Origin: Candidatus Doudnabacteria bacterium
GTDB taxonomy: Bacteria; Patescibacteriota; Doudnabacteria; UBA920
Reading direction: 5' to 3'
Length of the DNA: 64,000 nt
Assembly: GCA_963837465.1 (NCBI GenBank)
Contig: CAWINB010000001.1
Location: 501,646-565,645 of the forward strand
Shown here: positions 12,471-62,046 of the stretch, one piece after another
Layout: every line of letters starts with the position of its first letter
Position numbering within the stretch: position 1 is the first letter of the stretch
Translations under genes and position numbers: made by a program
Notes under the pieces: model-generated
Seen by the model: only the letters and a program-made list of their open reading frames with translations
Database searches by the model: none
Told to the model about the DNA's origin: nothing

Positions 12471-12474
12471 AACT

Positions 12475-21972: not shown

Positions 21973-22027
21973 GACACCTCTTGTCCGATATTTCCATTTG
22001 AACCGTCGGACTGCGGGTCAATGCCCT

Positions 22028-35406: not shown

Positions 35407-35414
35407 GTTTTAAA

Positions 35415-37118
35415 TTATATTATATTTAGCTGTAATCTTTTCTCTATTAGCCGCTTCCTTGCTTCTAGAAAACCATCAAAATTTGCGATGCTCCACTCGC
35501 CGCTGGGAATAAGGTGTTTTTGTAGCTCGGCCTTGTTGCTTCCGATTGATTGCGTCCATTCTTGAAAAGGGGTATTGGACTTTGTTTTGTTCTCAGTGCT
35601 GCCGATATACCGGATGTTATAGATCGAGTTAAACTTGTCTTCCGGGATCCCTGCCTTTTTTAACTCAGAGCGAGAAAAAATATGATCCTGTTCCGGTGCG
35701 TTGCCTTTCAGCCGGGGAGCAAAATTTATTGCGCCGCCGTAACAGATAGCCAAAACGAGATAGCTGTCCCGGGAATTGTAGGAAACGCGATCAAGATCCT
35801 CAGCAGTCACCTGGCCGAATTTTTTAGTTTCATTGCGGATTTTGTCTTTGATAGCTTCTGCCGGAAATTGATTACCAGGGTTCTGGTCTATTGCCTCTTT
35901 GCATTTATATAGCACTGTGTCCGACTGTCCGCCGAATACTCCGCTTAGCAGGGTGTTGATTAGCCAGACCCTGATTACCGTAATCTGAGCTTCCGAAATG
36001 CAGTTTTTCTCTTCGCCGATTCCTTTAATGTCATTCTTAAAAGCCCAATAGACGATAGGGATCAGGGCATTATGGCTTGGTATAGTTCGCTCGCTGGTAA
36101 GATAAAAACGGTCTAGCAGGTCAAAGACAAGCGAAATCGCGCCGCTAATTTTCACCCAATCTTTTTTTAACGTCTCGATTGTTTTTGGTTTGAAATTTTT
36201 TACCTTGTACAACAACTCTTCCGTGGTCGTTGCATATAGCAATAGGGTTGTTTTTAATATAAAATCGTTGGTAAATTTGTAACGATCTTTGTTGATCTTT
36301 GAAAGTAGCTCATCAAATTTTTCCCGCGCATCTCCCCACTTTGATTTAATAGTCGAGAACAACAGATCGGAGTACGTTAGCTCCGTTCCGCCCGAGTTCG
36401 TTCGCACAAAAATATCCAGTACCCGATCATAGTCCTGCACTGTTTCTGGATAATAATAGATTAGTTTTTCGGTTTTTAATTTATCGTATAGCTGGGCAAT
36501 GCCGTTTTTATGCTTGTCTGTTAGCTCAATCGAATACTCGTCTTTAATGCCCTGGGCCGTGTTGTTTATTTCCGAGAAAAATTTTTGGATGGAGTAAATG
36601 TCCTTTACCCTATACCAGAGTTTTCTAGGTCCGTCATCGTCAGCCTCCTCCAAAAAACTAGTACCTTTTTTCTTGTTAAAAAACTTAAACTCGTAGAGTA
36701 AATCGTCTTCACTTTCTTCCTCGCCGCTAAGGATATTGAAGTATAGTTCATATGGATTGGTATGAATAATATAGTTTCCTTTTAGTACCAAGAAAAAAGT
36801 CGTCAGCCGTTGTTGGCCATCAAGAACCAAAAGATACTCGCGCACCGGGTCGATGCTGGTGTCCTCCGTGTTAGTTTCTAGGCTTGTATCCACAAACCGA
36901 AGTTTTTTTATCTTTTCGTCCTGTAAATATTTCCCTTCAAGTCGCCAAAACAGGAATGTGCTAATTGGATAGTCGCGCATTATGGAATCAAAAAGCGCAT
37001 ATACCTGATCAGGCCGCCAGACGAAATTACGCTGAATATCAGGCAAAAAATATTTGCGATTTATGTCCTCGACAACCTCAGATATAGATTTTCTAGTATA
37101 GTCTTGAAGCATAAGCAA
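35415..37118 (-). CDS. GmrSD-like type IV restriction enzyme (DUF262 N-domain + DUF1524/His-Me C-domain)
   Basis: DUF262 signatures LPDIQRNFVW and DGQQRLTT. The C-terminal region ends with an HNH-like motif (HIFSRS). Confidence 0.8.
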   Translation of the reverse strand: MLMLQDYTRKSISEVVEDINRKYFLPDIQRNFVWRPDQVYALFDSIMRDYPISTFLFWRLEGKYLQDEKIKKLRFVDTSLETNTEDTSIDPVREYLLVLDGQQRLTTFFLVLKGNYIIHTNPYELYFNILSGEEESEDDLLYEFKFFNKKKGTSFLEEADDDGPRKLWYRVKDIYSIQKFFSEINNTAQGIKDEYSIELTDKHKNGIAQLYDKLKTEKLIYYYPETVQDYDRVLDIFVRTNSGGTELTYSDLLFSTIKSKWGDAREKFDELLSKINKDRYKFTNDFILKTTLLLYATTTEELLYKVKNFKPKTIETLKKDWVKISGAISLVFDLLDRFYLTSERTIPSHNALIPIVYWAFKNDIKGIGEEKNCISEAQITVIRVWLINTLLSGVFGGQSDTVLYKCKEAIDQNPGNQFPAEAIKDKIRNETKKFGQVTAEDLDRVSYNSRDSYLVLAICYGGAINFAPRLKGNAPEQDHIFSRSELKKAGIPEDKFNSIYNIRYIGSTENKTKSNTPFQEWTQSIGSNKAELQKHLIPSGEWSIANFDGFLEARKRLIEKRLQLNII

Positions 37119-37130
37119 TAAGTAAGTTAA

Positions 37131-39398: not shown

Positions 39399-39399
39399 A

Positions 39400-40815
39400 T
39401 TAGTAAACCCTTACCTCGTAAGGGATTTGTTTAAAGGTTAAATTATATTGGTCTAAAATTGTGTCATTGATCAGGCACTTGTCGGCGTAGACGACTTTTT
39501 GAAAGCCATCCTTTTTAAGTTTATTTAAAAACGACTTGCCTAAAATATTATTGCCCTTTTCCTTGTATAACAGGTAATATTCCGTTTCGTTAAACTGCCC
39601 AACAAAATTTCCACTAATCTCTTTTGGATTTATGTTAGTCTTGGTCTCGGTAAAATAAATATACGTGGCCAACTGGTTAAATTCGCATTCTTCATCAATC
39701 TGCCCCTGCTCGTTAAACAGCGGTTTACCAAGTTCGCAATATTCAAAGCCCTCTTTGTAGCCGTATTTTATGATAGCGCGTTTTACCCGTTCGGCCGTGA
39801 TATCTTTAGCAACCGCATCTTCCATTTCCACCATAATAAATTTACGATTGCCGCCATCTTCCTTATTTAAATCTAAAACCGCGTGGCCGGTGGTGCCGGA
39901 TCCAGCAAAGGAATCTAATATTAAGTCAGCATCTTTAGTTGCCAATTGTAGCATCCTTTTAATTAAACTCACTGGTTTTGGATAATCAAATGGCTGGTTC
40001 TCACCAAATATACTTTTTAGATCTTTTTTTGCTGAATCATTCGAACCAACCTCGCCGTGCTTCCATAAAGTTTTTGGCTTTAAGCCTTGTTGAACCTCCG
40101 TTAAGAATCTTTTCAAATTTGGAGTTGAGTCGCCGCTTTTTCCAAACCAAACCCTGTTTTCTTTTATTAAAATTAGCATATCTTCCTGTGCGTAAATCCA
40201 GTGCTTGTTAGGCGGCAAATTCCATACTCGTCCAGTTACAGAAGACTTGATTGGATAGCGGCCATTTTTTCGTTCCTCTTTTGCATACAAAGGAATTGCT
40301 TTCCAAGGCCCTCTAGGATCTTTGTCGGGATTAGAATACCGGGCGTCGGCCTCTTCCGACCTGGGCAATAAACCTAGTGGCTTAGTTTCTATTGATTTGG
40401 CATAAACAAAAATATACTCATGGCAATCGGAAATCATTTTTGAGTCATTTTTTGTTGTGTACATTTTTTCCCAAACTACCTGGGCAATAAAATTTTCCGC
40501 CCCGAAAATCTCATCCAACAATAACTTTAAATTGGCACCTTCCTTATCATCAATTGAAATAAAAATCACCCCCTCATCTGCCAATAAATCTCTTAACAAT
40601 TTCAGTCGGGGATACATCATACACAGCCATTTATCATGGCGATTTAAATCCTGCGACTCCGCGCCCACTACTTTGCCCAGCCATTTTTTTATTTTTGGCG
40701 AGTTAACTTTATCGTTATAAACCCAGCCTTCGTTGCCGGTATTATAGGGCGGATCAATGTAGATGCATTTTACTTTGCCACCATAAAAAGGCATCAGAGC
40801 CTTTAGGGCTTCCAA
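39400..40815 (-). CDS. mod: Type III restriction-modification Mod subunit (N6-adenine DNA methyltransferase)
   Basis: IYIDPPYNTG (DPPY) and SAM motif LDSFAGSGTTG. Lies 2 nt upstream of res. Confidence 0.85.
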   Translation of the reverse strand: MEALKALMPFYGGKVKCIYIDPPYNTGNEGWVYNDKVNSPKIKKWLGKVVGAESQDLNRHDKWLCMMYPRLKLLRDLLADEGVIFISIDDKEGANLKLLLDEIFGAENFIAQVVWEKMYTTKNDSKMISDCHEYIFVYAKSIETKPLGLLPRSEEADARYSNPDKDPRGPWKAIPLYAKEERKNGRYPIKSSVTGRVWNLPPNKHWIYAQEDMLILIKENRVWFGKSGDSTPNLKRFLTEVQQGLKPKTLWKHGEVGSNDSAKKDLKSIFGENQPFDYPKPVSLIKRMLQLATKDADLILDSFAGSGTTGHAVLDLNKEDGGNRKFIMVEMEDAVAKDITAERVKRAIIKYGYKEGFEYCELGKPLFNEQGQIDEECEFNQLATYIYFTETKTNINPKEISGNFVGQFNETEYYLLYKEKGNNILGKSFLNKLKKDGFQKVVYADKCLINDTILDQYNLTFKQIPYEVRVY

Positions 40816-46244: not shown

Positions 46245-46460
46245 ATGAAGGTAAAAAAAGTCGCCTACTCCGATTTGTTAACAAATAAACAAATTAACAG
46301 CTCTACTTTAGTAAGAATCCCTATAGAGCTTCATCAAAAATTAAAAATAGAGGCTGCATGCATGGGCAAAACAATCAAGGGTATTGTAACTCAAGTCATT
46401 GAAGCACATTTCAAACAAAACAGCGAAATAACTAAAAACTTGACTTATAAAAGGTATTAA
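46245..46460 (+). CDS. small ribbon-helix-helix-like DNA-binding protein upstream of the serine recombinase
   Basis: A beta-strand (VRIPIEL) followed by two helices (HQKLKIEAACMGKTIKGIVTQVIEAHF), the Arc/CopG-like pattern. Confidence 0.4.
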   Translation: MKVKKVAYSDLLTNKQINSSTLVRIPIELHQKLKIEAACMGKTIKGIVTQVIEAHFKQNSEITKNLTYKRY

Positions 46461-46495
46461 GGTATTTATATGTTAACAGCATTAACCAATTCTTT

Positions 46496-48277
46496 ATGGA
46501 AAATGGTAACAAAAAAATTAAATATTTCCTTTATTGCCGAAAAAGTTCCGAGGCCGAGGATCGGCAAGTCGCTTCCATCGAAGCGCAGATTGACGAGTTG
46601 GAAAAACTTGCCCAAAATTTGAAACTGGAAATTGTCGACATTATTAGGGAAACCAAATCAGCCAAAGCCCCTGGCAGGCAACTATTCAATAGCATGATCG
46701 CACGGATTGATAAAGGCGAAGCCCAGGGAATAATTTGTTGGAAACTTGACCGCCTGTCCAGAAATCCTGTTGACGGAGGTTTAATAAGCTGGATGCTCCA
46801 GCAAAACACAATAAGACACATTCAAACGTATGGTGGCAGTTACTATCCGACTGATAATGTCGTAGTTATTGCCGTCGAACTTGGTGTCGCCAACCAGTAC
46901 GTGCGGGACTTGTCAGTAAACGTTAAGCGCGGTTTTAGGAAAAAACTACAGGACGGAAATCCGACAGGGATGGTTCCCCAAGGTTACTTAAATAGTATGA
47001 CCTTGGAGCGAGGGTCCAACATAACTCTCAAAGATCACGAGCGCTTCCCGTTGGTGCGCCGGATGTGGAGCATGATGCTCAGCGGCAATTATAATCCGCA
47101 AGAGATTCTAAAGATTGCAAATGGCGAATGGGGCTACAAAACACTGAAGCGAAAGAAACTCGGCGGCAAAGCGCTGTCACGCAGCTCCATTTACCAAATG
47201 TTCACAAACCCTTTTTATTACGGCTTTTTACTGGAACACAAAACCGGCGAGTTACACCAGGGTAGCCACGAGCCGATGGTCAGCAAAGAGGAATTCGACA
47301 AGGTGCAGATCTTATTAGGCAGCAAGGGAATGAAACGCGCTCCGCACACTAAGCAATTTGCCCATACCGCCCAAATTGGATGTGGCACCTGTGGCTGCCA
47401 AATTTGCGCCCATGAAAAGTTTCAGATTATTTGCAGCGTTTGTAAATTTAAATACGCCTATAACCTAGATATCCATCCTTGTTGTCCCAACTGCAAAACC
47501 AAAGTTAAGGATATGAAAAAACCAAAGATCCTGCACTACGTTTATTACGGCTGTAGCCGGCGCAAAAATACCGAAACCTTTTGTTGTGCGGAACGCTCAA
47601 TTCAACAGGAAGAGCTGGAGGGGCAAATTAAAAAATATTTGTCGACAATAACCATCAGACAGGAATACGTGGATTGGGCACTGAAGCATTTAGAGGAATC
47701 AAAAAGCGATAAGGCCCAAACTAAAGTGTCCATAGCGGAGTCACTGGAAAAGGCTTTGGCTGATGTTGAAAAAAGATTGGACGGCCTAGTAGAGATGAGG
47801 TCGTTAAAAGAGCTTAGCCAAGAGGAATTCCTCGCGAGAAAACAGCCGCTGGATGCCGAACGGCAGCGAATCAGGGACTTAGTGGCAAAACAAAAGAAGA
47901 GCGGACAGAATGGCAATTTTCAAACGACAAAGGCGCTGACGTTCGCCGAGCGGGCGCTGCGGGAGTACGATAAAGGCGACCTTAACAAGAAACGGGCTAT
48001 AGTTGCCGAGTTAGGTTCGAACCTAACTTTATCCGCCAAAAACCTTAGTGTTTCCGCCGAAGAACCGTTCCAAATCCTAGTTGAGGCGACAAAGTGTATA
48101 GCCGACTTAAACCCTACGTTCGAACCTGCAATTCAAGCTGTGAATAAAAGAGAAAAGCACGCTTTAGGCGTGCTTAATCCCACTTGGCTCAGCGGCTGGA
48201 TTGCGGTCGCCCCTTTGGGCAACTTTCGGAGGCTTTTTGGAGGCCTGCGCTGGGCACTCGGGTCAGAGGTTTTTTGA
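46496..48277 (+). CDS. large serine recombinase
   Basis: Catalytic YCRKSSEAEDRQVASIEAQ, a recombinase domain, and an extended Cys-rich zinc ribbon (CGTCGCQICAHEKFQIICSVC...CCPNC). Confidence 0.85.
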   Translation: MENGNKKIKYFLYCRKSSEAEDRQVASIEAQIDELEKLAQNLKLEIVDIIRETKSAKAPGRQLFNSMIARIDKGEAQGIICWKLDRLSRNPVDGGLISWMLQQNTIRHIQTYGGSYYPTDNVVVIAVELGVANQYVRDLSVNVKRGFRKKLQDGNPTGMVPQGYLNSMTLERGSNITLKDHERFPLVRRMWSMMLSGNYNPQEILKIANGEWGYKTLKRKKLGGKALSRSSIYQMFTNPFYYGFLLEHKTGELHQGSHEPMVSKEEFDKVQILLGSKGMKRAPHTKQFAHTAQIGCGTCGCQICAHEKFQIICSVCKFKYAYNLDIHPCCPNCKTKVKDMKKPKILHYVYYGCSRRKNTETFCCAERSIQQEELEGQIKKYLSTITIRQEYVDWALKHLEESKSDKAQTKVSIAESLEKALADVEKRLDGLVEMRSLKELSQEEFLARKQPLDAERQRIRDLVAKQKKSGQNGNFQTTKALTFAERALREYDKGDLNKKRAIVAELGSNLTLSAKNLSVSAEEPFQILVEATKCIADLNPTFEPAIQAVNKREKHALGVLNPTWLSGWIAVAPLGNFRRLFGGLRWALGSEVF

Positions 48278-48514: not shown

Positions 48515-51172
48515 ATGAGTTCTGAACAAAGGGATGGTCAACATCCTATGTTCGATAAAATAGAGCGGGCCGCAGTAGTCGAAGAGCCTCATCCCAAGCC
48601 TGAAGTTCAAGGCAATCCTGAAGCCAGGGCGGAAGAGCTTTTTGCTTTATGGCAGGATTTTCGCCGCGCTAGCATCGACTCACATATTAAACGTCGTAAG
48701 TATAAAAAAGAGCATCCGACGGAAGAATTTAATGACCCAAACGGCGACAAATTAAACAAAGTTCGCTCGGCTCTTTCGGAACGCTGGAGCGACCCCGCTG
48801 TCCAGGCTCTATTTAAAAAAAGAGTCGGCGAAGCAGCTGTGGAATGGGGCAAAATTAAGAAGCCGTTAAAGGAATACAAAACTATCCAAAGCGGCCTGCA
48901 AGCCTCTCAAGCAGACTTAGAAAAACTATACCGGGAAGTTTTTGAACACCGGGGCAAAGACCCGGATGAGTTAACGCAGATCCAGATTGCCGAACTTTCC
49001 GCCCAAGCTGACTCCCAAAAAAACCAAGTCGAAGCAATGGAACAAAGCAGCCCGGAATTGTCGGCGCAGCTTTCTTTTGAACGGTTAAAAGATTATCAAA
49101 AACAATTGTCGCGGGACGGTTTTATCTGGACGGCATCACGGGAAAAATATTTTGAAAAAATTATTGACCATTTGGTTGTAGTAAACCAAAATCGGCCCCT
49201 GCTTTTAGCCGGGGAAACCGGCACCGGCAAAACCCGATTGGCGCGTGCCGTATCCAAAAGGCTTACCGGCAAAAATCCCTATGAAGTCGGTGAAGAAGCC
49301 AAGACGGATATTCGCCCCTTATTAGGTTCACGGGCGATTGATGAAAAAGGTTCTTATATCAATTACGGCCAACTGGGACAGGCCCTAAGCGGCAAAGAAA
49401 CTTCGCGGGATACCAAACCCGGAGCCGGCGGTATTTTTTATATGGACGAAATGAACGGCTATCCGGGCGACGCCTTGCGTTCACTGGTTAAGCAGATTTC
49501 CGGCAGAAGGCCCGGGGAAGAAATCACTTTTGCGGCCTGGGCCGGACAGAAAGAAAAGCTGTCGCAGGATTTTGGTTTTTTAGGCTCGGCTAATTTGCCT
49601 TCCGAAAAGCATCCTGACCGCGCTGATTTGCCTGTTGAAGTTGCCCGCGAACTGGGGTCTCTTGAAATTGATTATCCTCCGCAGTCGGCCGAAGACCCTG
49701 AACTCTACGAAATGATGTTGGCTGGTTTGATGGATCAAAACGGCAGAATTCGCGTGCCGCAGGAAGCCTTGGCCCCTGAATACGAAGATGTCGTTGATGC
49801 GGCCACCAAAGAAAAACATAAGCGATTAAAAACCGAACCCGAATCCGGCGGCGCATTGTGGCGGTTTGCCAACTTGGTTGCCGATGTTCAAAAAAGCTAT
49901 AAAGGCCAGGACAATGCCTTAACGTCAACTTTAAGGGACGCATCTCATTTGCGGGCGGCGGTTTTGGATCCCGGCTTGGTGCTGTCGTGGCTGGCGGCTT
50001 ACAGAAAAGCGGCAATGCGTCGTAATGTTGATTTGCAGACATTCTTGGGTGAAAAACTGGAAACCTGGGCGGGACAGAAAATTTATCCCGAGGAAGACAG
50101 AAATTTGCTTAAACAATTCGTTGTTAAATTTAACCTTGAAACTCCCGACCGTCCGGTTAACCATAAACAAACAATTTTATCCCCGGCGGAAATAGGCAGG
50201 CTGTCGCCGCGCGTGCCCAGGGAAGCCCAAATCATGGAAAACGAGGCACGCCCTACCGAAGCCATGGCAATTTTGGAAAATGGCACCCAGGTTTTGTACA
50301 ACCTGGAAAGCAAGAACCCGGCAAGCGGCAGCCGTGTCGTGAAAAAGGGCGATCGCAGCCGCCAGACTTTTGTGTTTAAAGGTTTTGTTATAGGAGAGCC
50401 GCGGGATCATGCTTTAATAGAAAGCTCCACCGGCAAGCTGGAAACCGTCAGCCCTTCTGACTTTGCAAGGAATTGGGAAGCCGCCTCTTTAGGTTTCAGT
50501 GAAAAATTTGAAGGGCGGGAAATTAAACTGGATGTGCTGGAAGCCAGGGCGAAATCCGAGAAGTTTTATAAAGAACATAATTTAAGCGAATTTGCGGCCA
50601 ACTTACCCAAAGATATCAGGTTCTCCCCGGATAGCGAAGCCAAGATCAGGGAAGCTTTAAAAATGGGTTTTGACAGGGCTATGGTTTTACCCGCAACTTC
50701 GGTTCAGGGCCAGTATCAAGACAAGCTGTTGACTGAAATGCAGGCTGGCTACGCCACTGCCGACCAATTCTGGTCTGAAAAACCTAAAACCGTGGCTACT
50801 CGAAACCGTCCGGCTAAAGCCTACCTGTTTCTTTACAGCAGCGGAGCGATACCGCAGGAAACCAAAAATTTAAACCAGACTCAAACCGAAGCGCTATTCC
50901 GCCAAAAACACTGGAATGGCTTAACACTGGCCGAATTCCGCCTGACCGAGCGGCTGCATTTTGAAGCTGACGGAAACCACAATTTCCATAGCTGGAATAA
51001 CGACGCCAAGCTTTCGAACTGGACTAGGCTTTTAGATAGCGCTGATGCTTCTGGTGCCGCGGCTGCCCGCTGGAATCCGGACAATTCGCGCGTCTATTTC
51101 TACTGGCGCGATCCGGCGTCTGTCCATCCGAGGTTGGGCGCCCGTCCCGCGGTCGTTGTAGAAATCCTTTAG
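48515..51172 (+). CDS. DGR target protein: AAA_5/MoxR-like ATPase with C-terminal variable (CLec/FGE-like) region
   Basis: Walker A LLAGETGTGKTRLA. The C-terminal 40 codons coincide with the VR, whose differences from the TR fall on TR adenines. Confidence 0.8.
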   Translation: MSSEQRDGQHPMFDKIERAAVVEEPHPKPEVQGNPEARAEELFALWQDFRRASIDSHIKRRKYKKEHPTEEFNDPNGDKLNKVRSALSERWSDPAVQALFKKRVGEAAVEWGKIKKPLKEYKTIQSGLQASQADLEKLYREVFEHRGKDPDELTQIQIAELSAQADSQKNQVEAMEQSSPELSAQLSFERLKDYQKQLSRDGFIWTASREKYFEKIIDHLVVVNQNRPLLLAGETGTGKTRLARAVSKRLTGKNPYEVGEEAKTDIRPLLGSRAIDEKGSYINYGQLGQALSGKETSRDTKPGAGGIFYMDEMNGYPGDALRSLVKQISGRRPGEEITFAAWAGQKEKLSQDFGFLGSANLPSEKHPDRADLPVEVARELGSLEIDYPPQSAEDPELYEMMLAGLMDQNGRIRVPQEALAPEYEDVVDAATKEKHKRLKTEPESGGALWRFANLVADVQKSYKGQDNALTSTLRDASHLRAAVLDPGLVLSWLAAYRKAAMRRNVDLQTFLGEKLETWAGQKIYPEEDRNLLKQFVVKFNLETPDRPVNHKQTILSPAEIGRLSPRVPREAQIMENEARPTEAMAILENGTQVLYNLESKNPASGSRVVKKGDRSRQTFVFKGFVIGEPRDHALIESSTGKLETVSPSDFARNWEAASLGFSEKFEGREIKLDVLEARAKSEKFYKEHNLSEFAANLPKDIRFSPDSEAKIREALKMGFDRAMVLPATSVQGQYQDKLLTEMQAGYATADQFWSEKPKTVATRNRPAKAYLFLYSSGAIPQETKNLNQTQTEALFRQKHWNGLTLAEFRLTERLHFEADGNHNFHSWNNDAKLSNWTRLLDSADASGAAAARWNPDNSRVYFYWRDPASVHPRLGARPAVVVEIL
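51048..51169 (+). repeat. DGR variable repeat (VR)
   Basis: 122 bp matching the TR at 51412-51533 with 14 mismatches, 13 of them at TR adenines. Confidence 0.8.
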
Positions 51173-51411
51173 TCTTTGTATTTTAATGTTTTCTTTTTTT
51201 ATTTTTGTTTTTATCCTCGAAAATTTTTTATTTTAACCTTTCGGCTAATGAAACCACTCTGCAAAGAGATTGGTTCGCCGACTCTCAATCCATAAACGGA
51301 TTGAACAAGACAGTAAACAACGACGTTCCTTGTGAGAATACCGGTCAGGGATAGCTCCGCGGAGTGTCCCGCGCGTTATGGATGGATCAAGGAATACGGG
51401 GCGGGTGGGCC

Positions 51412-51533
51412 CTTCTGGTGCCGCTAATGCCAACTGGAATCCGGACAATTCGCGCGTCAATTTCAACTGGAACGATCCGGCGAATGTCAATCCGAAGTTG
51501 GGCACCCGTCCCGCGGTCGTTGTGGGCATAGGG
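51412..51533 (+). repeat. DGR template repeat (TR)
   Basis: Non-coding copy with AAC-rich codon positions (ANANWNPDNSRVNFNWNDPANVNPK if translated). Confidence 0.8.
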
Positions 51534-51534
51534 G

Positions 51535-51903
51535 TTATCTGTTACCCGGCTGGTTGCGGATGTATTTGATCCAACCGCTGAGCATTTTGCTTATCTCCTC
51601 CAAATTGGCCATCAGCTGGTAAAATTGGGTGTTGACGATAATGTTGTTTTCACAACACAGCCGTACCAGCAATTTGCATAACTCGCATTTGGAATAAGCT
51701 TTCAGCAGGCCGCTTTCCCGGAGCGGCAGGGGCATGGCATTGGCCTCAAAAATATATTCCAGTATGGCTAAAAGGGAACGATCCAGCACCTGGCCCAAAG
51801 TATAACGCAACGGTTTGGGAAAGTCGGCCAGCAGGGGCAAAAGGATTTGATAGGTTTTATAAGTTTTAACCACCACCGGCGGTTCAAAGGAAGTTTGGGT
51901 CAT
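51535..51903 (-). CDS. avd: Avd-like four-helix-bundle accessory protein (IVS/Avd family)
   Basis: FPKPLRYTLGQVLDRSLLAILEYIFEAN matches the Avd/IVS pattern FPKxExYxLxxQxxR...NIxEG. On the opposite strand to the TR and RT. Confidence 0.7.
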   Translation of the reverse strand: MTQTSFEPPVVVKTYKTYQILLPLLADFPKPLRYTLGQVLDRSLLAILEYIFEANAMPLPLRESGLLKAYSKCELCKLLVRLCCENNIIVNTQFYQLMANLEEISKMLSGWIKYIRNQPGNR

Positions 51904-52902
51904 ATGGACTTATTGCCTTTTAATAAATTTGCAAAAGTTGAAAATCTTTATGATGCTTGGGATCGCTTCACGCCCGGCAAACGGGAGCGCCCGGATGTGG
52001 TGGCCTTTGAGCGCCGCTTGGAAAACCAACTGCAACAGCTTTCGGAGGATTTAAGCGGCGGGCTTTATGTGCACGGGGACTATAAAAGTTTTTTTGTGCG
52101 CGACCCGAAGTTCAGGATTATACACAAAGCCAAAGTCAGAGACCGGGTTGTGCATCAGGCGCTTTACAGCGTACTCTACCGGCTGTTTGACCGGCGGTTC
52201 TATTTTGATTCGTATTCGTCCAGGGTTGGCAAAGGTACCCAGGCGGCGGTGCTCCGAGTCTGGGAATTTATTCGAAAGGAAAGCAGTAATTTTAACCAGC
52301 AGGCTTATGTTTTGCATGGCGATGTTGATGATTTTTTTGCCAGCGTTGACCACCAGATTTTATTAACGTTTATCCGCAAACGCCTTAAAGAGCCAAATTA
52401 TTTGCGGCTTTGCACGACCATAATTGACAGTTTCCATGTCACCCCGGGCAAAGGAGTGCCGCTGGGCAATTTGACCTCGCAGATTTTCGCCAATATTTAT
52501 CTGCACGAATTGGATTACTTTGTGAAGCAGACTTTGGGCGTGGAAAAGTATGTCAGGTACAACGACGACTTTTATTTAGTCAGCAAAGATAAATCCGAAC
52601 TTTCCGGCTTGAGCCTGACCATCAGGCGGTTTTTAGCTGAAAAGTTAACGCTGTCTTTGCCGGAGGAAAAAACAATACTCAGAAGCCTAAACAACGGCGT
52701 GGATATTTTGGGGGTGGTGGCTTTTCCTTACGGGCTGGTGCCAAGAAAAAGAGTCAGGACGGCGGTTTTGGAAGTGGCTGCGCAAGCCCGAAAAACAGGA
52801 TATAATAGCTATGTGGTCAAACAGCTGAATTCATATATTGGTTTGCTGGGAATTTCCAAGAGTTTTTTACTGAAAGAACGCTTGCGTTTAAGCATCGGTT
52901 AA
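51904..52902 (+). CDS. DGR-type reverse transcriptase
   Basis: LGNLTSQIFANIYL (the DGR-specific SQ motif), catalytic YVRYNDDFYL, and motif A LHGDVDDFF. Confidence 0.85.
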   Translation: MDLLPFNKFAKVENLYDAWDRFTPGKRERPDVVAFERRLENQLQQLSEDLSGGLYVHGDYKSFFVRDPKFRIIHKAKVRDRVVHQALYSVLYRLFDRRFYFDSYSSRVGKGTQAAVLRVWEFIRKESSNFNQQAYVLHGDVDDFFASVDHQILLTFIRKRLKEPNYLRLCTTIIDSFHVTPGKGVPLGNLTSQIFANIYLHELDYFVKQTLGVEKYVRYNDDFYLVSKDKSELSGLSLTIRRFLAEKLTLSLPEEKTILRSLNNGVDILGVVAFPYGLVPRKRVRTAVLEVAAQARKTGYNSYVVKQLNSYIGLLGISKSFLLKERLRLSIG

Positions 52903-52914
52903 TTATTTTAGTTT

Positions 52915-55491
52915 ATGGGTCCAGAAACAAGAAATTTTGAGCAGCCGGAGGCAGGAAATTTTGACGCTAAAGCCGCTTTGCAGAAAGCGCGAGGCCGACT
53001 TATCGGGCAGGCTTTAAAATCGCGCGAAGGTATTGCCGGTCTTAAGGCTTGGCGGTCTTTATCTAACAGAAGCAAAGGGGTACGGCAGGCCAGAACTGTG
53101 TTTGAAAACCTTTCGGCTTACGACTTAGCCGTTTCCGGCAACCCCGAGCAAGCCGGGGCGTTTGGCGCGGAGATGGCCAACAAAACAAGTTTGGGAAGCG
53201 GCAGAGTACAGGAACTCCTGTCCTGCTTTGAAGCCAAGCAATTGGGAGCGACATTGCCGGAAGTCCGGCCTGAAGTCCGGCAAATTTTCCAGAATGTTTT
53301 AAAGAGCAGGTCCACGGAGGGCGAGGTTGACGTCGCCCAAGTCATGTCTTCGGCCAACGTGTCTTTAGGCGGCAAGTTCCAGTGGTTTGAATCCCGCTTG
53401 GCTTCGGCCATAGATTTTTTGGAGCGCAAGGATTTGGAAGAGGCCAGAGCCGAAGCTGAAAAGCCAATACCTCCGGAAATCCAAGAACAGAAAGAGCAGA
53501 GCCCACAAAGCAATCTGCCTCCGCCTCAGGAAGACAGCCTGACGCCCAGTATGGACGAGATGGAAACCTCAAAGGAAAACGAGCCCGGAGCATATTTTAA
53601 AGTGCGGCCTTTTTACGGCGGCTATTATCGCGGCGATGATTTTGACATATGGGACGAGAAGGTCATGAAGTGGAAAAAGTCGGCAAGTATGCTCTCTGAA
53701 TTTACCAGCCCTGCCATAGAAGAGAAAAGTCGTAAGGTCTTTTCCGGCAGCGTCCAAGGCGGCAGACGCACGGTATTGCCCATGCCTTATGGTTTTGCGC
53801 CGGATGTTTCCAGTCTGCGGACCCAGGGCAACGAGACTGTAACCATATTGGCTGACGGACACGGCAGTTTTGTTGTTGACGCTGCCAGAGCTTCGGGAGT
53901 GATTACCTTTTCTCTGGAAATAGCAAAAACCCAAGAAAGTTTAAGGGAAGCAGCGCGGGCAAAATCCAAAGCCGCGACTTATAAATTTTCTCCCGGTACT
54001 GATGCTAAACTTGCAGAGATAACTCAAGGCAAACATTCCATTATGGATCAGGCGCGCTCTGCTAAGGCTTATGTTAAGAAGCTCTTAAAATATTCCAATG
54101 ATTCAAGCTTTAACAACATATACAGAACTGGCGATCCGGCAGGTTATTTTTCAAGAATTGAACAGCACGAAGAGGCTGACTGCGATGTGGCCAACACTTA
54201 TTTCGTGGCTTTGCTGCGGCGTCTTGGAATGGAGGCAAGATTAGTTTCCGGCCATTACGTCAAAGTTAAGGATAAGCAGAATGCGGCGGTTATTTCTTCG
54301 GGTACCGGCCACGCTTGGGCGGAAGTTTGGGATGGGCGGGCTTGGCAGCGCCTTGATGCCACGCCGCCGGGCGATCCTAATATGGACGATGAGGAAATAG
54401 ACGAGCAAAGCTCTGACGCGGCTATGGAAGGCGACTTTGGCGAACAGGAGGCTCCGGAGTTAAGCGATGAGGAATTGGAGCAATTAATCACTGAAGCCCA
54501 AGAAGCTTTGGAAAAGAAGGAACGGGAACCGGAAGAATTAGCGGCTTTAAACTTTGCCGAACAAGCGGGTTGCAGCCCTGAAGAAGCCAAGCAGATACTA
54601 AAACGTATTACTGAAGCGCGAGAGAAGAGGGACAAACAGGGAAGGAATATCAGGGCAAGATTATTGGCTGAATGGCAAAAAATAATCCAGGATAATTTGA
54701 TTGACAGAACCCGCTACACCGCGCCTATACGAATGTCCAGAGGGGAAGAATTGGTTGACCCGGTGGAAACGGTATTGGACTTGCGCGCCGGTGAAGCTGA
54801 TCCGACCGGTTTTTCCAAGCATGAACGTAAGACTGAAAAGGAACAGATTTACGGCGGCTTTGACGCTTTTCTGGTAGTGGACAAAAGCGGCTCTATGGCA
54901 GAAACTGACGGCTCAAGCGGCAGGCCAAAGTGGGAAGACCAGCAGGTCTTTAGCTTTTTGCTGATGGATTCAATGTACGCCGCCGCGCAGGAATTTAAGC
55001 GGCAGAAAATAAAGCTGATTTCGCCGATGGATGTCAGGGTGGCTTTAGTCAGTTTTAACGCCGGGGGCGGCAGGGTTGAATTGCCGCTGGGCACCGCTTG
55101 GGGGCCTAAGGAACAACTGCAAGTTTGGAAAGCATTGCAGGAGAATGTGGGCGGAGGCACCCCGGATCATTTGGGCTTACAAACCGTTAAGAAGATGATT
55201 GAGCAAGATGCCGTTAACTTGCAACAAAGTAAACAGCGGCTTCGTTTGGTATTGGTATCCGCCGATGGCGGCAGCGACAGCGTACCCGCCACTATCTCGG
55301 CCAAGGAAGACTTAAAGTCAGCGGGCGTGGTGGTGAAAGCCGCGGGTATCGGTTCCGGTGCCAGCCAGGTAATTGCCACTTATACGCCGGACGGCAGCAA
55401 TTTGGCCAGCTTTGCCGATGCTCCGGATTGGGCGGCCGAAGAAATCATTACTCAGGCCAAACTTTTAAATCCGAAAAAAGTTAAAAGGTAA
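52915..55491 (+). CDS. vWA-domain protein with transglutaminase-like cysteine protease region
   Basis: Transglutaminase-like triad elements (EADCDVANTYF, GHAWAEVWD) and a C-terminal vWA MIDAS motif (FLVVDKSGSMAETDG). Confidence 0.75.
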   Translation: MGPETRNFEQPEAGNFDAKAALQKARGRLIGQALKSREGIAGLKAWRSLSNRSKGVRQARTVFENLSAYDLAVSGNPEQAGAFGAEMANKTSLGSGRVQELLSCFEAKQLGATLPEVRPEVRQIFQNVLKSRSTEGEVDVAQVMSSANVSLGGKFQWFESRLASAIDFLERKDLEEARAEAEKPIPPEIQEQKEQSPQSNLPPPQEDSLTPSMDEMETSKENEPGAYFKVRPFYGGYYRGDDFDIWDEKVMKWKKSASMLSEFTSPAIEEKSRKVFSGSVQGGRRTVLPMPYGFAPDVSSLRTQGNETVTILADGHGSFVVDAARASGVITFSLEIAKTQESLREAARAKSKAATYKFSPGTDAKLAEITQGKHSIMDQARSAKAYVKKLLKYSNDSSFNNIYRTGDPAGYFSRIEQHEEADCDVANTYFVALLRRLGMEARLVSGHYVKVKDKQNAAVISSGTGHAWAEVWDGRAWQRLDATPPGDPNMDDEEIDEQSSDAAMEGDFGEQEAPELSDEELEQLITEAQEALEKKEREPEELAALNFAEQAGCSPEEAKQILKRITEAREKRDKQGRNIRARLLAEWQKIIQDNLIDRTRYTAPIRMSRGEELVDPVETVLDLRAGEADPTGFSKHERKTEKEQIYGGFDAFLVVDKSGSMAETDGSSGRPKWEDQQVFSFLLMDSMYAAAQEFKRQKIKLISPMDVRVALVSFNAGGGRVELPLGTAWGPKEQLQVWKALQENVGGGTPDHLGLQTVKKMIEQDAVNLQQSKQRLRLVLVSADGGSDSVPATISAKEDLKSAGVVVKAAGIGSGASQVIATYTPDGSNLASFADAPDWAAEEIITQAKLLNPKKVKR

Positions 55492-56444: not shown

Positions 56445-57788
56445 ATGAAAGAAAAATTATTAAGCGAGCTTAAGTTGAAAGTTGAGTATGTGTCAGTGGC
56501 TGCGCTGAAACCCAGCGAGTATAATCCACGCAAATTCTCCAAAGAGCAGTTTGAGCAGCTAAAAACTAGCATTAAAGAGCACTCCTTGGTAGAGCCTTTG
56601 GTGGCGAACTCCGCGCCGAATAGAAAGAACATTTTAATAGGAGGACACGGTAGGTTAAAAGCCGCCAAGGAATTGGGGCTTAAAACCGTGCCGGTGGTTT
56701 ACGTCAGCATTCCCGATATCGAGACCGAGAAGGATCTAAACGTGAGACTGAATAAGGCGGTCGGAGAATTTGATCTGGAGTTGCTGTTAAAGAATTTCAG
56801 CGAGGAATTTTTGTCCGGAGTTGGATTTTCCAGTGAGGAATTGGATAAAATTTTTGCTGTTGAGGAGATACCGGAATTATTTGATCTGGAAAAAGAACTT
56901 AAGAAACTCAATATTCAAAAGGTCAGCGTTAAACAAGGTGACGTCTACGAGATTGCCGGTTGTCGGGTTATGAACGGTAACAGTACCGTTGAAGCCGATA
57001 TGATAAAACTCATGGACGGCCAGAGGGCGGATATGTGTTTGACGGACCCACCTTATTTACTAGACTACCTACACGGCAAAAAGAAAAAAGACGCTACTAA
57101 AGGTTTTGGCCTTAAGCGTGATCGTACCTATCTAGGGACTACGGAACTGCCGGAAAATTTTACCGACCTGTGGATGGCTAGTATCGCCAAAATCCAAAAG
57201 CCGGATTTCTCTATTATAGTTTATGAGAATCCAAAGAACCTGCGAACCATCTGGAACGCTTTAGAAAAGTATTGGAAATACCGTAACACTATAATTTGGC
57301 ATCTGCCAAATCGGGTACAGGGCTTCTCCGCTAAGTATAAGTTTTTCAACAAATGGGACTTCGCCATGGTCGGTACCTCCGGTCAGGTGTCCTTAAACGA
57401 CGAGCCGGAAAAGGATGCGCTATTGCAAGAGGAGTATGAGTCCGCTTTATTTGCCACCTCCGGCAAGCCGCATTGGGAGTCTTATGCCAAGGGCAAAAAG
57501 TATTGCCCGACTGACTTTATTGAGTATAAAGCGTCGGATAAAAAATCATCGGGCCAAGGAATAATCTTTGGCACTAAGCCAGTGGAGATTCTGATTCCAT
57601 ATATTAAGGTGCTGACTAGGCGTGATGAATTGATAGTGGAACCGTTCGGGGGGTCGGGGTCAACAGCGGTAGCAGCCATAAAAATGAAGCGCCGTTGTTA
57701 CCTGATGGAAAAATCTAACGTCTACACGGAAGTCATATTGAACAGACTTTCGAAGTTAACCGGGCAAAAGCCAAGGAGGGTGGCATGA
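56445..57788 (+). CDS. ParB-like nuclease domain fused to DNA methyltransferase (copy 3)
   Basis: ParB motif ILIGGHGRLKAAKELG, catalytic CLTDPPYLLDYL, and EPFGGSGSTAVAA. Confidence 0.85.
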   Translation: MKEKLLSELKLKVEYVSVAALKPSEYNPRKFSKEQFEQLKTSIKEHSLVEPLVANSAPNRKNILIGGHGRLKAAKELGLKTVPVVYVSIPDIETEKDLNVRLNKAVGEFDLELLLKNFSEEFLSGVGFSSEELDKIFAVEEIPELFDLEKELKKLNIQKVSVKQGDVYEIAGCRVMNGNSTVEADMIKLMDGQRADMCLTDPPYLLDYLHGKKKKDATKGFGLKRDRTYLGTTELPENFTDLWMASIAKIQKPDFSIIVYENPKNLRTIWNALEKYWKYRNTIIWHLPNRVQGFSAKYKFFNKWDFAMVGTSGQVSLNDEPEKDALLQEEYESALFATSGKPHWESYAKGKKYCPTDFIEYKASDKKSSGQGIIFGTKPVEILIPYIKVLTRRDELIVEPFGGSGSTAVAAIKMKRRCYLMEKSNVYTEVILNRLSKLTGQKPRRVA

Positions 57789-58225
57789 GCCGGAAAAATT
57801 ACCAACAGGCAAAACAAAAAGCGGCCGTTATCGAACAGCTAAAAAAATTTCCGATTGTTCAGTTAGCCGTTCAGAAGGCCGGAGTATCCAGACCCAGTTA
57901 TTACCAATGGCGGAAACAGGATGCGGAATTCGCTAAAACCGCGGATGAGGCCATGGCCGAAGGCATCCTGTTTATTAACGACATCGCCGAAGGTAATATG
58001 ATATCTCTGATAAACGAAAAGGACATGCGAAGCATTCGTTTTTGGCTCACGCACCGTCATCCCGTCTATGCCGCAAAACTGCAGCTCGAAGGGAAGTTGG
58101 AGTTATCGGACGAGGCTTTAAGTAGCGAGCAGCAGGAAATCGTAGACAGGGCCTTGGGATTGCTCGCCGGGGATAAAAGCCAACTCGGCGAACAAAAAGG
58201 AGGCAACCATGAACCTCACGCCTGA
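57785..58225 (+). CDS. terminase small-subunit-like HTH protein (copy 3)
   Basis: GVSRPSYYQWRKQDAEF HTH signature. Confidence 0.55.
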   Translation: MSRKNYQQAKQKAAVIEQLKKFPIVQLAVQKAGVSRPSYYQWRKQDAEFAKTADEAMAEGILFINDIAEGNMISLINEKDMRSIRFWLTHRHPVYAAKLQLEGKLELSDEALSSEQQEIVDRALGLLAGDKSQLGEQKGGNHEPHA

Positions 58226-59738
58226 CATCACTGAGCGGATGGGTAAAGATGCCGGTATCCGCCGCGCCATAACAAAAAAGAGCCATGAAGCTTTCTTTGC
58301 CTTCTATCTGCCGCATTACTTAGAGTACCAAAGCGCATTGTTCCATCACGAGCTGTTTGCCGCTACCGAAGACAGGACTGCTAAACTTTTGGTCGTCCAA
58401 GGTTTTAGGAACAGCGGCAAATCAACAATATTATCTTTGTCTTTTCCCCTTTGGCTCGCCATAAGCGGGCAGGCGCAGGAAATCATCATCATTTGCAAAA
58501 ACCAGATGTTGGCCAGACATGCGATGAAAAATATTCAGGCAGAATTAGAAGAGAATGAACAGCTAACCAAGGATTTTTATCCCTTTGATTTTAGGGAGGA
58601 TGCCTCGGACGCTTACATCGTAAGCTTAAAACGCTACCGCGCCGAAATCGTGGCCGTTTCCCGCGAGCAAAGCGTGCGCGGCTTAAAACATCGGCAGTAT
58701 AGGCCACAGGCTATTATTATTGACGATCCGGATGACATCGGGTCGGTAAAAACTTTGGAAAGCCGGGAGAATACCTGGCAATGGATGATGCGGGATATTG
58801 TGCCATTGGGGGATAAAAATACCAGAATTGTGGTTATCGGTTCGCCGCTTCATGGCGATTCGCTGATTATGCGCCTACACGATAAGATCGAAAGCGGACA
58901 GATGCGGGGACTGTCCATGCGCATTCCCATTCTTGACCAAAACGGCAAACCCGCTTGGCCTGCCAAATTTCCGACTCAGAAGGAAATCCAAGAGGAGAAA
59001 ATGAAGATGGATGAGATCAGTTGGAACAGGGAAATGATGCTGTTGCTTACTCCTGAGCTCGGACAGCTGGTCACCTTAGAGGACATAGTTAAGTATAATA
59101 ACCTACCTCCCCGTGCGAGTACTTGCGGCTATATTGCCACCTGGTCGGGAGTGGACTTCGCCATCGGCCAGAAGCCGGGCAGCGATTATACGGCTATCGT
59201 GACAATACAAATACATGTCGTTAATGGAAAGCTGAAAATTTACGTCCTGCCGAACCCCGTTAACCGCCACTTGGATAATTATGGCAATATCGCCGCCATG
59301 AAGCAGGTAATCGACAATGCCAAACAAACAGGCCACAGCAAAATGTTTATGGAGGCCAACTTATTTCAAGTTTCGTTTTACCAGCAGATGATCGGCGCTG
59401 GCTATAACCAGATAGCGCCAGTTACGGTCAGTGGTGATAAGCTAACAAGGTTACAACCGACAGCTATGATGATCAAGGATGGTCGGCTACTATTTCCCAA
59501 AGAGGGCTGCCGTGACCTCATTTTCCAACTGGTAGATTTTGGCTCGGCACGCAAAGACGATTTGGCGGATGCCTTGAGCTTGGTCGTCAATGAAGCTATT
59601 AACGAACATAATAAAAATCTCTCGCTGTACGGTTACTTGGATTGGGTAGAATCTAACGGCGGACCGTATATGGACATTGACGGCAGCAAACCGACCAGGA
59701 GATTTCAAAGCCTCATCCCGGAAGGCCAAGAAGAATGA
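58209..59738 (+). CDS. terminase large-subunit-like protein (copy 3, canonical Walker A)
   Basis: GFRNSGKST (GxxxxGKST), Walker B IIIDDPDD, and nuclease-region similarity to copies 1 and 2. Confidence 0.7.
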   Translation: MNLTPDITERMGKDAGIRRAITKKSHEAFFAFYLPHYLEYQSALFHHELFAATEDRTAKLLVVQGFRNSGKSTILSLSFPLWLAISGQAQEIIIICKNQMLARHAMKNIQAELEENEQLTKDFYPFDFREDASDAYIVSLKRYRAEIVAVSREQSVRGLKHRQYRPQAIIIDDPDDIGSVKTLESRENTWQWMMRDIVPLGDKNTRIVVIGSPLHGDSLIMRLHDKIESGQMRGLSMRIPILDQNGKPAWPAKFPTQKEIQEEKMKMDEISWNREMMLLLTPELGQLVTLEDIVKYNNLPPRASTCGYIATWSGVDFAIGQKPGSDYTAIVTIQIHVVNGKLKIYVLPNPVNRHLDNYGNIAAMKQVIDNAKQTGHSKMFMEANLFQVSFYQQMIGAGYNQIAPVTVSGDKLTRLQPTAMMIKDGRLLFPKEGCRDLIFQLVDFGSARKDDLADALSLVVNEAINEHNKNLSLYGYLDWVESNGGPYMDIDGSKPTRRFQSLIPEGQEE

Positions 59739-61200: not shown

Positions 61201-62046
61201 ATGTCCACAAAAGGCCTTACCATACTATTGCCAGACGGTGATCCCAACGGCATTAAAATTATTGAAGTTAACGGTTGGGTTGGCAAGGCCATTATTATCC
61301 CGAGGGCCAAGCTTAAATTTATTAAAGATCGACCGGAAAGTAATCTGCCAGCACTGTATTTTTTGTTTGGAGAGAATATGGATGAGACCAAACCCAGCGT
61401 TTACATTGGGGAAACCGAAACCTGTTACCAGAGATTGACTAATCATGAAAGCAATAAGGATTTTTGGAATTTAGCCATTATTTTCATTGGCAGTTTGGAT
61501 AAGGCAGATGTCAGGTATCTAGAAAACAAAGCCGTGGAGGAAGCCCAAAGTTCCGGCCGCTACCTGATGACCAATGGTAATTCCCGTAATGAAAATACCT
61601 TATCCGAGTTTAAAAAATCAGCGGCAGACAGTTATTTTGAAAGTATTAAGTTTGTCATGGCAGTGCTGGGTTACACTTTGTTTGAGCCGGTCTTTGCAGA
61701 TACCCATACAGCCGACGAAGTATATTATTTAAAAGCCTCTGGCGCGGAAGCCAAAGGCAGTCTTTTGGATACAGGAGAGTTTATTGTATTTAAGGGCTCT
61801 ACCGTGCGCTTAGCCGAAGTGCCTTCTATGCAAGGCACAGGCGGCTCAAAGCTTAGGCAGCTAATGAGCCGGGATGATGATGGCAGGCTTAAAAAAGTTA
61901 GCGACGAATCCTATCAGTTAACCCAAGATGTAGTCTTTACCAGCCCAAGTCTGGCTGCGGACGTGGTTACTGGCAGATCCAGCAACGGCTGGATATCATG
62001 GAAAGATAGCCAGGGGCGAACACTGGATGAGAATAAGAGGAAGTAG
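61201..62046 (+). CDS. GIY-YIG-like nuclease N-domain with DUF4357-like C-terminal domain (copy 2)
   Basis: Nearly identical to the 10293-11138 product over the full 281-aa length. Confidence 0.55.
   Translation: MSTKGLTILLPDGDPNGIKIIEVNGWVGKAIIIPRAKLKFIKDRPESNLPALYFLFGENMDETKPSVYIGETETCYQRLTNHESNKDFWNLAIIFIGSLDKADVRYLENKAVEEAQSSGRYLMTNGNSRNENTLSEFKKSAADSYFESIKFVMAVLGYTLFEPVFADTHTADEVYYLKASGAEAKGSLLDTGEFIVFKGSTVRLAEVPSMQGTGGSKLRQLMSRDDDGRLKKVSDESYQLTQDVVFTSPSLAADVVTGRSSNGWISWKDSQGRTLDENKRK

Follow-up and report, generated by a model that had tools for sequence, protein, structure and literature searches.

We believe that positions 48515-55491 of the DNA analysed here (64,000 nucleotides from a Candidatus Doudnabacteria bacterium, GenBank assembly GCA_963837465.1, contig CAWINB010000001.1, forward-strand positions 501,646 to 565,645; hereafter the window) form a self-contained cassette of the type found in the Candidate Phyla Radiation (CPR): a diversity-generating retroelement (DGR) of architecture B3, made up of a target gene with its variable repeat (VR), a leader, the template repeat (TR), an inverted avd gene and a reverse transcriptase (RT) gene, together with the two-protein system that it diversifies. 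We put the probability of this reading at about 85%. That the locus is a genuine, intact DGR is confirmed on every defining point that a sequence can put to the test. As a DGR it is ordinary, a member of the known CPR class that combines B3 gene order with a target joining an AAA ATPase to a C-type lectin (CLec) fold, and one more case among the hundreds already surveyed; what makes it interesting is the function of the class and its way of working.

A preliminary description of the same DNA had called the locus a complete DGR with adenine-specific mismatches between its repeats. The identification is borne out by those mismatches, by an RT resembling that of the Bordetella phage DGR (bRT), by an Avd protein, by a target with a predicted CLec fold and by relatives that share the adenine bias. 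Completeness holds for the DGR core, but the description had missed both the partner gene at 52915-55491, which encodes a protein with transglutaminase (TGase) and von Willebrand factor A (vWA) domains, and a structured leader at about 51245-51411. These two by-products, the TGase-vWA partner and a leader RNA whose pairing with the 3' end of the TR is supported by covariation, are worth follow-up. The coordinates of all features are collected in Table 1.

Adenine-directed repeats and the retroelement proteins

The VR and the TR constitute a single 112-nt ungapped direct repeat with 88% identity and a spacing of 364. In the ungapped comparison 13 of the 14 mismatches have an adenine in the TR, and with 23 adenines among the 112 TR positions the hypergeometric probability of finding at least 13 of 14 mismatches on A is 4.3e-10, so that the adenine bias proposed in the preliminary description holds on pairwise alignment. 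The repeat pair of that description is real; its ends, at 51169 and 51533, overshoot by 10 nt, since homology stops at 51159 and 51523, and its count of 14 differences with 13 at TR adenines is right for the 112-nt core but fails over the longer span. The 10 nt past the repeat end are unrelated (AGAAATCCTT after the VR, GGGCATAGGG after the TR), and immediately before them stands the GC-rich boundary CGTCCCGCGGTCGTTGT, which is common to VR and TR in the manner of the paired initiation of mutagenic homing sites (IMH and IMH*) and recurs in three relatives (L002, L004, L005). Adenine-biased TR/VR pairs were found in 19 related loci, our set of relatives comprising 20 loci that are designated here by L numbers.

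From TR to VR, asparagine codons become A, R, Y, Y, R, S and H, and there are further changes of K to R and T to A; the earlier statement that TR AAC codons correspond to varied VR codons is correct as to the variation, although several of the TR codons concerned are AAT. The TR adenines are distributed 11/12/0 over the three codon positions of the VR frame, nine codons are AAY, and a single TR codon, AAG, is able to mutate to a stop. The VR itself ends 13 nt before the stop codon of the target gene. An adenine-tolerant scan of both strands of the 64-kb window, with the full-length repeat and with 40-nt sub-windows, found no second VR. The TR also lies within an open reading frame (ORF) of 63 aa on the plus strand (51378-51569), which is the TR read in the VR frame (…ANANWNPDNSRVNFNWNDPANVNPKLGTRPAVVV…); it is no gene and could be mis-annotated as one.

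Two observations weigh against this reading of the repeats. The sole mismatch away from adenine, TR T51425 against VR G51061, is the one T-to-G exception already recorded in the preliminary description; it is synonymous (GCT/GCG). In addition, a GC-rich inverted repeat, cruciform or terminator 3' of the VR was not found, the interval 51140-51260 holding no stable hairpin (z +0.5). Such an inverted repeat follows the VR in only 34% of DGRs (Wu et al. 2018, PMC5758913), and for that reason its absence here is not family-defining.

The proteins agree with the repeats. The closest solved relative of the RT is bRT (8ub7, E 4.7e-31), with group II intron and retron RTs at about 1e-14. The two DGR motifs reported earlier are both present in the translation, LGNLTSQ aligning to IGSLTSQ of bRT (the [I/L]GxxxSQ motif) and YNDD to YMDD. 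All 15 genomic relatives of the RT come from metagenome-assembled genomes (MAGs) of CPR/Patescibacteria or DPANN, including Doudnabacteria, Saccharibacteria, Paceibacteria and similar groups, and each of the eight scanned relatives that gave a TR/VR pair gave an adenine-biased one. The nearest homologs of the RT and of the TGase-vWA protein alike are in MAGs of Doudnabacteria and other Patescibacteria, the source contig measures 699,532 bp, and PADLOC assigned the RT to generic RT models.

The Avd/IVS-family protein of the preliminary description is likewise present, matching Pfam bAvd (E 3.4e-10, 40.8 bits against a cutoff of 40) and, over its full length, NCBIfam DivGenRetAVD (E 1.2e-13, 51 bits, below the 80-bit cutoff), with no match in a PDB sequence search. 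What had gone unnoticed is that it is encoded on the minus strand, an inversion kept in L001-L006, L017, L019, L056, L059 and L060. The start codons of avd and RT stand back to back (CATATG at 51901-51906), which places the ribosome binding sites of both genes, and any divergent promoter, inside the coding sequence of the other gene; the RT ORF as listed begins further upstream, at an in-frame TTG (51847) within avd.

The general pathway can be outlined from the established DGR mechanism. Consider a plus-strand RNA that contains the TR. It would be copied by RT and Avd with random misincorporation opposite the 23 template adenines, and the resulting cDNA would then replace the VR as far as its GC-rich boundary. 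Up to 13 codons, or about 3e13 variants, would in this way be rewritten in the ligand-binding face of the C-terminal lectin-fold domain.

An ATPase with a predicted lectin tip and its transglutaminase-vWA partner gene

Walker A, Walker B and sensor-1 are conserved in six homologs of the target, as are the GETGTGKT and FYMDEMN sequences. Around the VR the predicted fold is that of the formylglycine-generating enzyme (FGE) and C-type lectins, matching TvpA, Mtd and TaqVP, with the VR at the C-terminus of the domain. CLec is the predicted fold for the VR of this class of CPR targets; Wu et al. (2018, PMC5758913) left the fold of the CPR VR classes open, and novel C-Lec variants have been predicted in CPR (Roux 2021, PMC8144416). 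The target has no signal peptide and no transmembrane segment (maximum KD19 hydropathy 0.99), which bears on two questions stated as unresolved by Roux (2021, PMC8144416), namely whether CPR DGR targets are truly non-membrane proteins and what they do.

The neighbouring gene also matches VWA/VWA_2. In its product, the catalytic triad of the TGase core consists of Cys423, His466 and Asp481, and D656, S658 and S660 form the metal ion-dependent adhesion site (MIDAS) of the vWA domain; across 22 homologs, down to 27% identity, none of these residues varies except S658, whose conservation is at least 90%. Like the target, the protein is without signal peptide or hydrophobic or transmembrane segment, and a PDB sequence search returned no match to it.

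The TGase-vWA gene adjoins an AAA-VR gene in 14 of the 15 related loci examined, down to 32% identity and in two gene orders. The five loci closest by RT (L001-L005) share with the window the order target/VR, TR, avd on the minus strand, RT, and the TGase-vWA gene then follows in L001-L003 and L005, the contig of L004 stopping inside the RT gene. Approached from the other side, the TGase-vWA family comprises more than 130 clusters across many CPR phyla, and of ten homologs sampled from it (72-32% identity), nine are neighbours of an AAA_5 protein (884-1013 aa) whose C-terminus carries a VR and which is accompanied by an adenine-biased TR; for the tenth, the contig ends 2.3 kb away. The arrangement is not frozen. 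The TGase gene precedes the ATPase in L018 and L019 and elsewhere comes after the RT, and the AAA and lectin parts are fused in the window, L001, L017-L019 and L056-L061 and encoded separately in L002-L004, as an ATPase of 555 aa plus two 361-aa lectin proteins, each with its own VR. Such variable gene order, together with gene fusion and fission, argues for a functional linkage of the TGase-vWA protein with the target that goes beyond inherited synteny. The partner is near-obligate, and its location is predicted to be cytoplasmic.

AAA_5/MoxR ATPases typically work with vWA partners. By that logic, the cytoplasmic AAA+ target would sense a ligand with its variable lectin tip, and the adjacent TGase-vWA protein would be the effector, perhaps acting as a thiol-peptidase or transamidase. 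Domains and linkage thus suggest a cytoplasmic, ATPase-coupled sensor/effector pair. Certain points tell against this proposal: the function of the pair is wholly inferred; the AAA domain is divergent, matching Pfam AAA_5 and no MoxR-specific model, with only marginal P-loop matches in a PDB sequence search; and PADLOC recognised no defence family in the target, Avd or TGase-vWA protein.

Related cassettes show further variations. Several diversify two lectin-domain genes from one TR, namely L017 and, with two VRs each, L002, L004 and L049; in L017 (11384-11507) the second target is a stand-alone protein of 311 aa downstream of the TGase gene. L018 (13113-13228 / 13557-13672) has an AAA-lectin target and a TR with 20 of 25 mismatches at A beside a TGase-vWA gene, and an AbiEii gene follows; no RT or avd was called nearby, and the RT may act in trans or be lost. 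In L059 a DUF6922 and AbiEii pair (846-1717), resembling a toxin-antitoxin system, lies between the target and the leader and TR of an otherwise identical cassette.

A leader RNA that pairs with the end of the template

Covariation shows that a leader of about 150 nt directly 5' of the TR is a structured RNA, in which the strand ACAACGAC and the final 8 nt of the TR form a helix that we call P0. The leader was first noticed on aligning the interval from VR to avd in five loci, where non-coding blocks proved strongly conserved. It contains an invariant block, GATTGGTTCGCC (51268-51279), flanked by hairpins that differ in sequence and length, and continues with the 5' strand of P0 and with two further helices, P1 and P2, of which P1 encloses P2; the tetraloop of P2 is UGCG in most relatives. 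A metagenome scan with an 18-mer from the leader gave 34 loci, nine of them genuine by the presence of a second conserved block and 25 of them chance matches, and the set used for covariation comprises 18 distinct sequences, including six loci that came from the TGase-vWA look-ups.

Of the cells formed by the 27 base pairs of P0, P1 and P2 in these 18 sequences, 95.1% are paired; sliding the partners brings the figure down to 35-58%. Compensatory double changes occur in 13 of the 27 pairs (three in P0, two in P1 and eight of the nine in P2), and none of 500 shuffles reaches the observed values. In P1, L058 has exchanged C-G for U-A, and L060 and L061 have made the same exchange at another pair; in P0, G-C has become A-U in L001 and C-G has become U-A in L037, and a ninth pair takes the form U-A in L058 and C-G in L059. 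The P0 position at which the leader of L037 is compensated is the very one where the TR of that locus departs from its own VR, which indicates that the leader tracks the TR and not the protein-coding VR. The G-U pairs place the structure on the plus strand. Folded on its own by minimum free energy, the window sequence yields P0, P1 and P2 as well. A search of 50900-52100 against Rfam at E<=1 gave no match for the leader.

Other pairings were considered. An invariant GGGGCG (51398-51403) can pair with CGUCCC (51507-51512), which would extend P0 over a 3-nt bulge and loop out the TR; this is backed only by one change of G-U to G-C. We dropped a pairing of GATTGGTTCGCC with the interior of the TR, as other loci do not keep the complementarity, and duplex folding of the TR 3' end against its flanks was rejected as a method because it tolerates large loops and gives non-specific long duplexes.

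What such an RNA might do is best approached through Bordetella, where a 140-nt spacer downstream of the TR begins with a strand that pairs with the 3' part of the TR and has the priming nucleotide at its end, continues with an adjacent strand that pairs with a segment just upstream of the TR in a 'cPRT stop' duplex, and then forms stem-loops, of which the one that binds Avd typically has, across DGRs, 9 bp, flipped-out bases and a tetraloop (Handa et al., bioRxiv 10.1101/2023.10.23.563531). The leader matches this spacer in the order and dimensions of its elements, on the other side of the template. By analogy, P0, P1 and P2 would be the counterparts of the primer:template duplex, the stop duplex and the Avd-binding stem-loop, moved from 3' to 5' of the TR; that is, we infer that the leader is a permuted spacer from which cDNA synthesis is primed. 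Synthesis would then begin just 5' of TR position 51516. Such a start is consistent with the position of the last A-mismatch, at 51504, and with the TR/VR differences inside P0 (that of L037, and a G/A difference at the junction in six loci) acting as IMH/IMH* differences and not as mutagenised sites. A primer that lies 5' of its template would also explain why avd can follow directly after the TR, in antisense, in B3 elements.

A more conventional arrangement has to be set against the permuted spacer. It would place the spacer of a canonical DGR RNA downstream of the TR, running antisense through avd, and would make the leader a promoter-proximal 5' untranslated region, a stability or processing element, a regulatory RNA or an insulating closing stem. 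We consider this doubtful, though it is the strongest of the competing explanations. Of 278 DGRs with an Avd, CPR and Nanoarchaeota included, 207 are reported to have putative Avd-binding stem-loops and stop duplexes shortly after the TR (Handa et al., bioRxiv 10.1101/2023.10.23.563531); those folds, however, are of single sequences and cover 40 nt upstream and 100 nt downstream, so that a leader lying 90-170 nt upstream is out of their reach. Nucleotide conservation is strong after the TR, but the coding of avd on the other strand explains it. The TR and the RT gene share a strand, which makes read-through possible; at the same time the interval between the TR and the avd stop codon is only 11 nt long. 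In none of 11 loci does the downstream flank complement the TR 3' boundary better than expected by chance; the leader, by contrast, contains a perfect 8-mer complement that shows compensatory changes, and in the window, L007 and L018 a contiguous-complement test gave the upstream flank the advantage over the downstream one. The likeness of the leader to the Bordetella spacer in order and dimensions is a further argument for the permuted spacer.

Beyond the survey of Handa et al., several observations count against the permuted spacer or against its generality. P0 could be only a closing stem. Its junction pair is C:A in six of the 18 sequences, one P0 mismatch in L060 and L061 is uncompensated, and the 18 sequences form one phylogenetically related subfamily. 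Finally, a composite scan for a P0 plus P1 helix with shuffled controls gave upstream hits in L006, L008 and L017 that we discarded as evidence, because on the DGR of Bordetella phage BPP-1 the same scan scored the true spacer elements at only p=0.82 and a spurious upstream match at p=0.013.

Joining the two by-products leads to a wider proposal, which we regard as evenly balanced between right and wrong: in B3-type CPR DGRs the primer strand, stop strand and Avd-binding stem-loop would be permuted, in a retron-like manner, to a leader 5' of the TR, and what these very abundant elements diversify would be the sensor tip of a cytoplasmic AAA+ ATPase with a dedicated TGase-vWA effector, serving intracellular, ATP-coupled recognition and not the role of a surface adhesin. 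Neither the permuted spacer nor the sensor pairing with a TGase-vWA protein was found in the literature, Paul et al. 2017 and the final version of Handa et al. standing outside that comparison. The density of DGRs in CPR bacteria is unusually high, and this locus with its 20 relatives offers a testable picture of one class of them, an ATPase, predicted to be cytoplasmic and tipped with a hypervariable lectin domain, that is paired with a TGase-vWA protein whose catalytic residues are intact. Should either flank of the template be able to house the priming elements, the rules drawn from Bordetella as the only model would be less strict than supposed, a search for DGR RNAs limited to the region downstream of the TR would miss the arrangement of this class, and the engineering of compact DGRs for directed evolution would gain a second natural RNA layout.

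Table 1. Features of the cassette, in order of position in the window.
Feature	Position	Strand	Basis or remark
DGR target gene, 885 aa: N-terminal region, AAA_5 ATPase, linker, C-terminal lectin-fold domain with VR	48515..51172	+	
AAA_5 (MoxR/dynein/midasin-type) ATPase core	49196..49603	+	Pfam AAA_5 residues 228-363, E 1.4e-10; GETGTGKT, FYMDEMN
FGE-sulfatase/C-type-lectin-fold domain, predicted	50492..51169 (start approximate)	+	
VR	51048..51159	+	14 mismatches to TR, 13 at TR adenines
IMH-like GC-rich 3' boundary of VR, CGTCCCGCGGTCGTTGT	51143..51159	+	VR and TR fully diverge after it
Conserved non-coding structured leader RNA	51245..51411	+	Alignments and covariation; directly 5' of TR
P0 5' strand ACAACGAC, candidate primer strand	51317..51324	+	Perfect 8-bp complement to TR 3' end
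P1 5' strand GUUCCUUGU, candidate equivalent of Bordetella 'stop duplex'	51325..51333	+	Directly 3' of P0
P2 hairpin, candidate Avd-binding stem-loop	51348..51370	+	9-bp stem, one bulged base, CGCG tetraloop
P1 3' strand A-U-CAAGGAAU	51386..51395	+	17 nt upstream of TR; P1 is a 9-bp duplex
[quoted passage not shown]
P0 3' strand GUCGUUGU, last 8 nt of TR	51516..51523	+	
avd, 122 aa	51535..51903	-	Inverted relative to TR and RT; Pfam bAvd, NCBIfam DivGenRetAVD
DGR reverse transcriptase, 332 aa from ATG	51904..52902	+	RVT_1 E 1.3e-17; LGNLTSQ, YNDD
Partner gene, 858 aa: N-terminal region without assignment, transglutaminase-like Cys-protease core, acidic linker, vWA with MIDAS	52915..55491	+	Pfam Transglut_core, VWA

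Activity, surroundings and relation to known systems

It is improbable that the cassette is a relic, no longer active, whose adenine-biased mismatches are fossils. The four ORFs are intact and retain their catalytic motifs (YNDD, LGNLTSQ, Walker A and B, Cys-His-Asp, MIDAS), the TR still holds 23 adenines with none at a third codon position, the structure of the leader is upheld by compensatory change, and the VR codons at variable positions differ among loci around an invariant scaffold. On the other side, an exact-sequence cluster look-up of the protein collection gave the target protein as a singleton and thus no VR variants from the population; decay is suggested in one lineage, where the TR-like copy of L003 has only five of 14 mismatches at A; and the lack of a nearby RT or avd in L018, which has a TR/VR pair, would fit a relic as well. 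In L003 (Saccharibacteria, 7443-7588 against 6251-6396) G stands in the TR at several positions that are A in the VR, and its TR is possibly decayed or overwritten.

A prophage cassette for tropism switching, with a receptor-binding target like Mtd of BPP-1, is very improbable and we reject it: flanking genes for a large serine integrase and an Arc-like repressor (46245-48277) and for a ParB-methylase, TerS and TerL (56445-59738) could suggest a phage, as could the ParB-methylase near the cassette of L056, but the target is an AAA+ ATPase that resembles no tail protein, the terminase is not followed by genes for a portal, capsid or tail, none of the three paralogous ParB-methylase/TerS/TerL modules of the window is part of a complete prophage, the flanks are not conserved elsewhere and the same cassette occurs in unrelated, non-phage neighbourhoods in other loci, the TGase-vWA protein and the leader 18-mer are absent from the viral contigs of IMG/VR, and the CPR DGR clade is classed as cellular (Roux 2021, PMC8144416).

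The cassette may nonetheless travel on integrative elements, since in the window, L002 and L019 it has a serine recombinase as neighbour. Another large enzyme of this kind (28211-29644) is encoded elsewhere in the window, beside a defence-like island on the minus strand (31130-40815) with genes for a 1224-aa protein without a family match, a nuclease of GmrSD type, a ResIII helicase and an N6/N4 methylase (type III restriction-modification-like). The modules of ParB-N6/N4 methylase with small and large terminase-like genes lie at 5540-9413, 11832-14443 and 56445-59738; their copies are 36-71% identical, the second has a truncated methylase, and portal, capsid or tail genes come after none of the three. 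Three such modules are unusual for a genome of about 0.7 Mb and could be satellite or island elements or a repeated defence or packaging module. A few kb from a terminase module in each case, there are two 281-aa DUF4357/RAMA-domain genes (10293-11138 and 61201-62046), whose 95% protein identity suggests recent duplication or recombination between elements. The window also holds, on the minus strand, a second and canonical MoxR-type pair, an AAA_3/AAA_5 ATPase (17092-18267) with a vWA protein (15344-17230), which has no DGR; it lies in a region (14000-22000) of GC 0.50-0.56, against about 0.42 elsewhere, beside a DEAD-box helicase (18955-21081), and was possibly acquired horizontally.

Among known systems, the retron non-coding RNA (msr-msd) is similar in proposed topology only, in that a 5' strand would pair with the 3' end of the template, P0 being comparable to a1/a2. 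The RT here is not of the retron clade, its product would be used for homing to the VR and not kept as msDNA, and a 2'-5' branch at a conserved G is without support here.

Closer in content are the vWA-MoxR 'ternary' conflict (VMAP) systems with DGR-diversified lectin domains (Kaur et al. 2020, PMC7159879; Dore et al. 2024, PMC10907252). They too co-encode an AAA+ protein (MoxR/AAA_5), a vWA protein, a peptidase-type effector and a DGR-diversified lectin, and their proteins are predicted to be cytoplasmic. In our cassette, by contrast, it is the ATPase and not the vWA protein that has the lectin fused to it or encoded beside it, the thiol-peptidase (transglutaminase) domain has its place in the vWA protein instead of in a separate VMAP protein, and the RT belongs to the CPR clade and not to clade 5A-E. 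There is no VMAP domain, as judged from gene content only, no Trypco or EAD adaptor and no third conserved protein in the cassette. Given the missing third component and the different distribution of domains, we do not file the locus as a VMAP system, although it may work like one; CPR were left out of the multicellularity survey of Kaur et al. (2020, PMC7159879).

The BPP-1 DGR (mtd-avd-TR-spacer-brt) is related more directly, with a homologous RT and Avd, a CLec-fold target with a C-terminal VR and a GC-rich 3' boundary, and with the same order of RNA elements, a primer:template duplex, an adjacent second duplex and a 9-bp tetraloop stem-loop. It differs in that here avd is inverted after the TR, the structured RNA is 5' and not 3' of the TR, no cruciform follows the VR, the target is a predicted cytoplasmic ATPase fusion and not a phage tail fibre, and the context is cellular and not viral.

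Closest of all are the B3 DGRs of CPR and DPANN. Architecture B3, TR-(avd)-RT with avd on the reverse strand, accounts for 90% of CPR DGRs, and the CPR VR class UVR4 occurs in proteins that match the Midasin AAA domain (Wu et al. 2018, PMC5758913); more broadly, AAA/Midasin-linked DGR targets are documented for CPR (Wu 2018, PMC5758913; Dore 2024, PMC10907252). In the light of these descriptions the inverted avd and the ATPase target, which had first seemed unusual, are the CPR norm. To the published picture our analysis would add the predicted CLec fold, the linkage with the TGase-vWA gene and the covariation-supported pairing of the leader with the TR 3' end, some of which Paul et al. 2017 may already hold. 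In gene order, inverted avd, host group, AAA target with C-terminal VR and A-to-N signature the locus is like these DGRs, nothing essential differs, and it is with them that it belongs.

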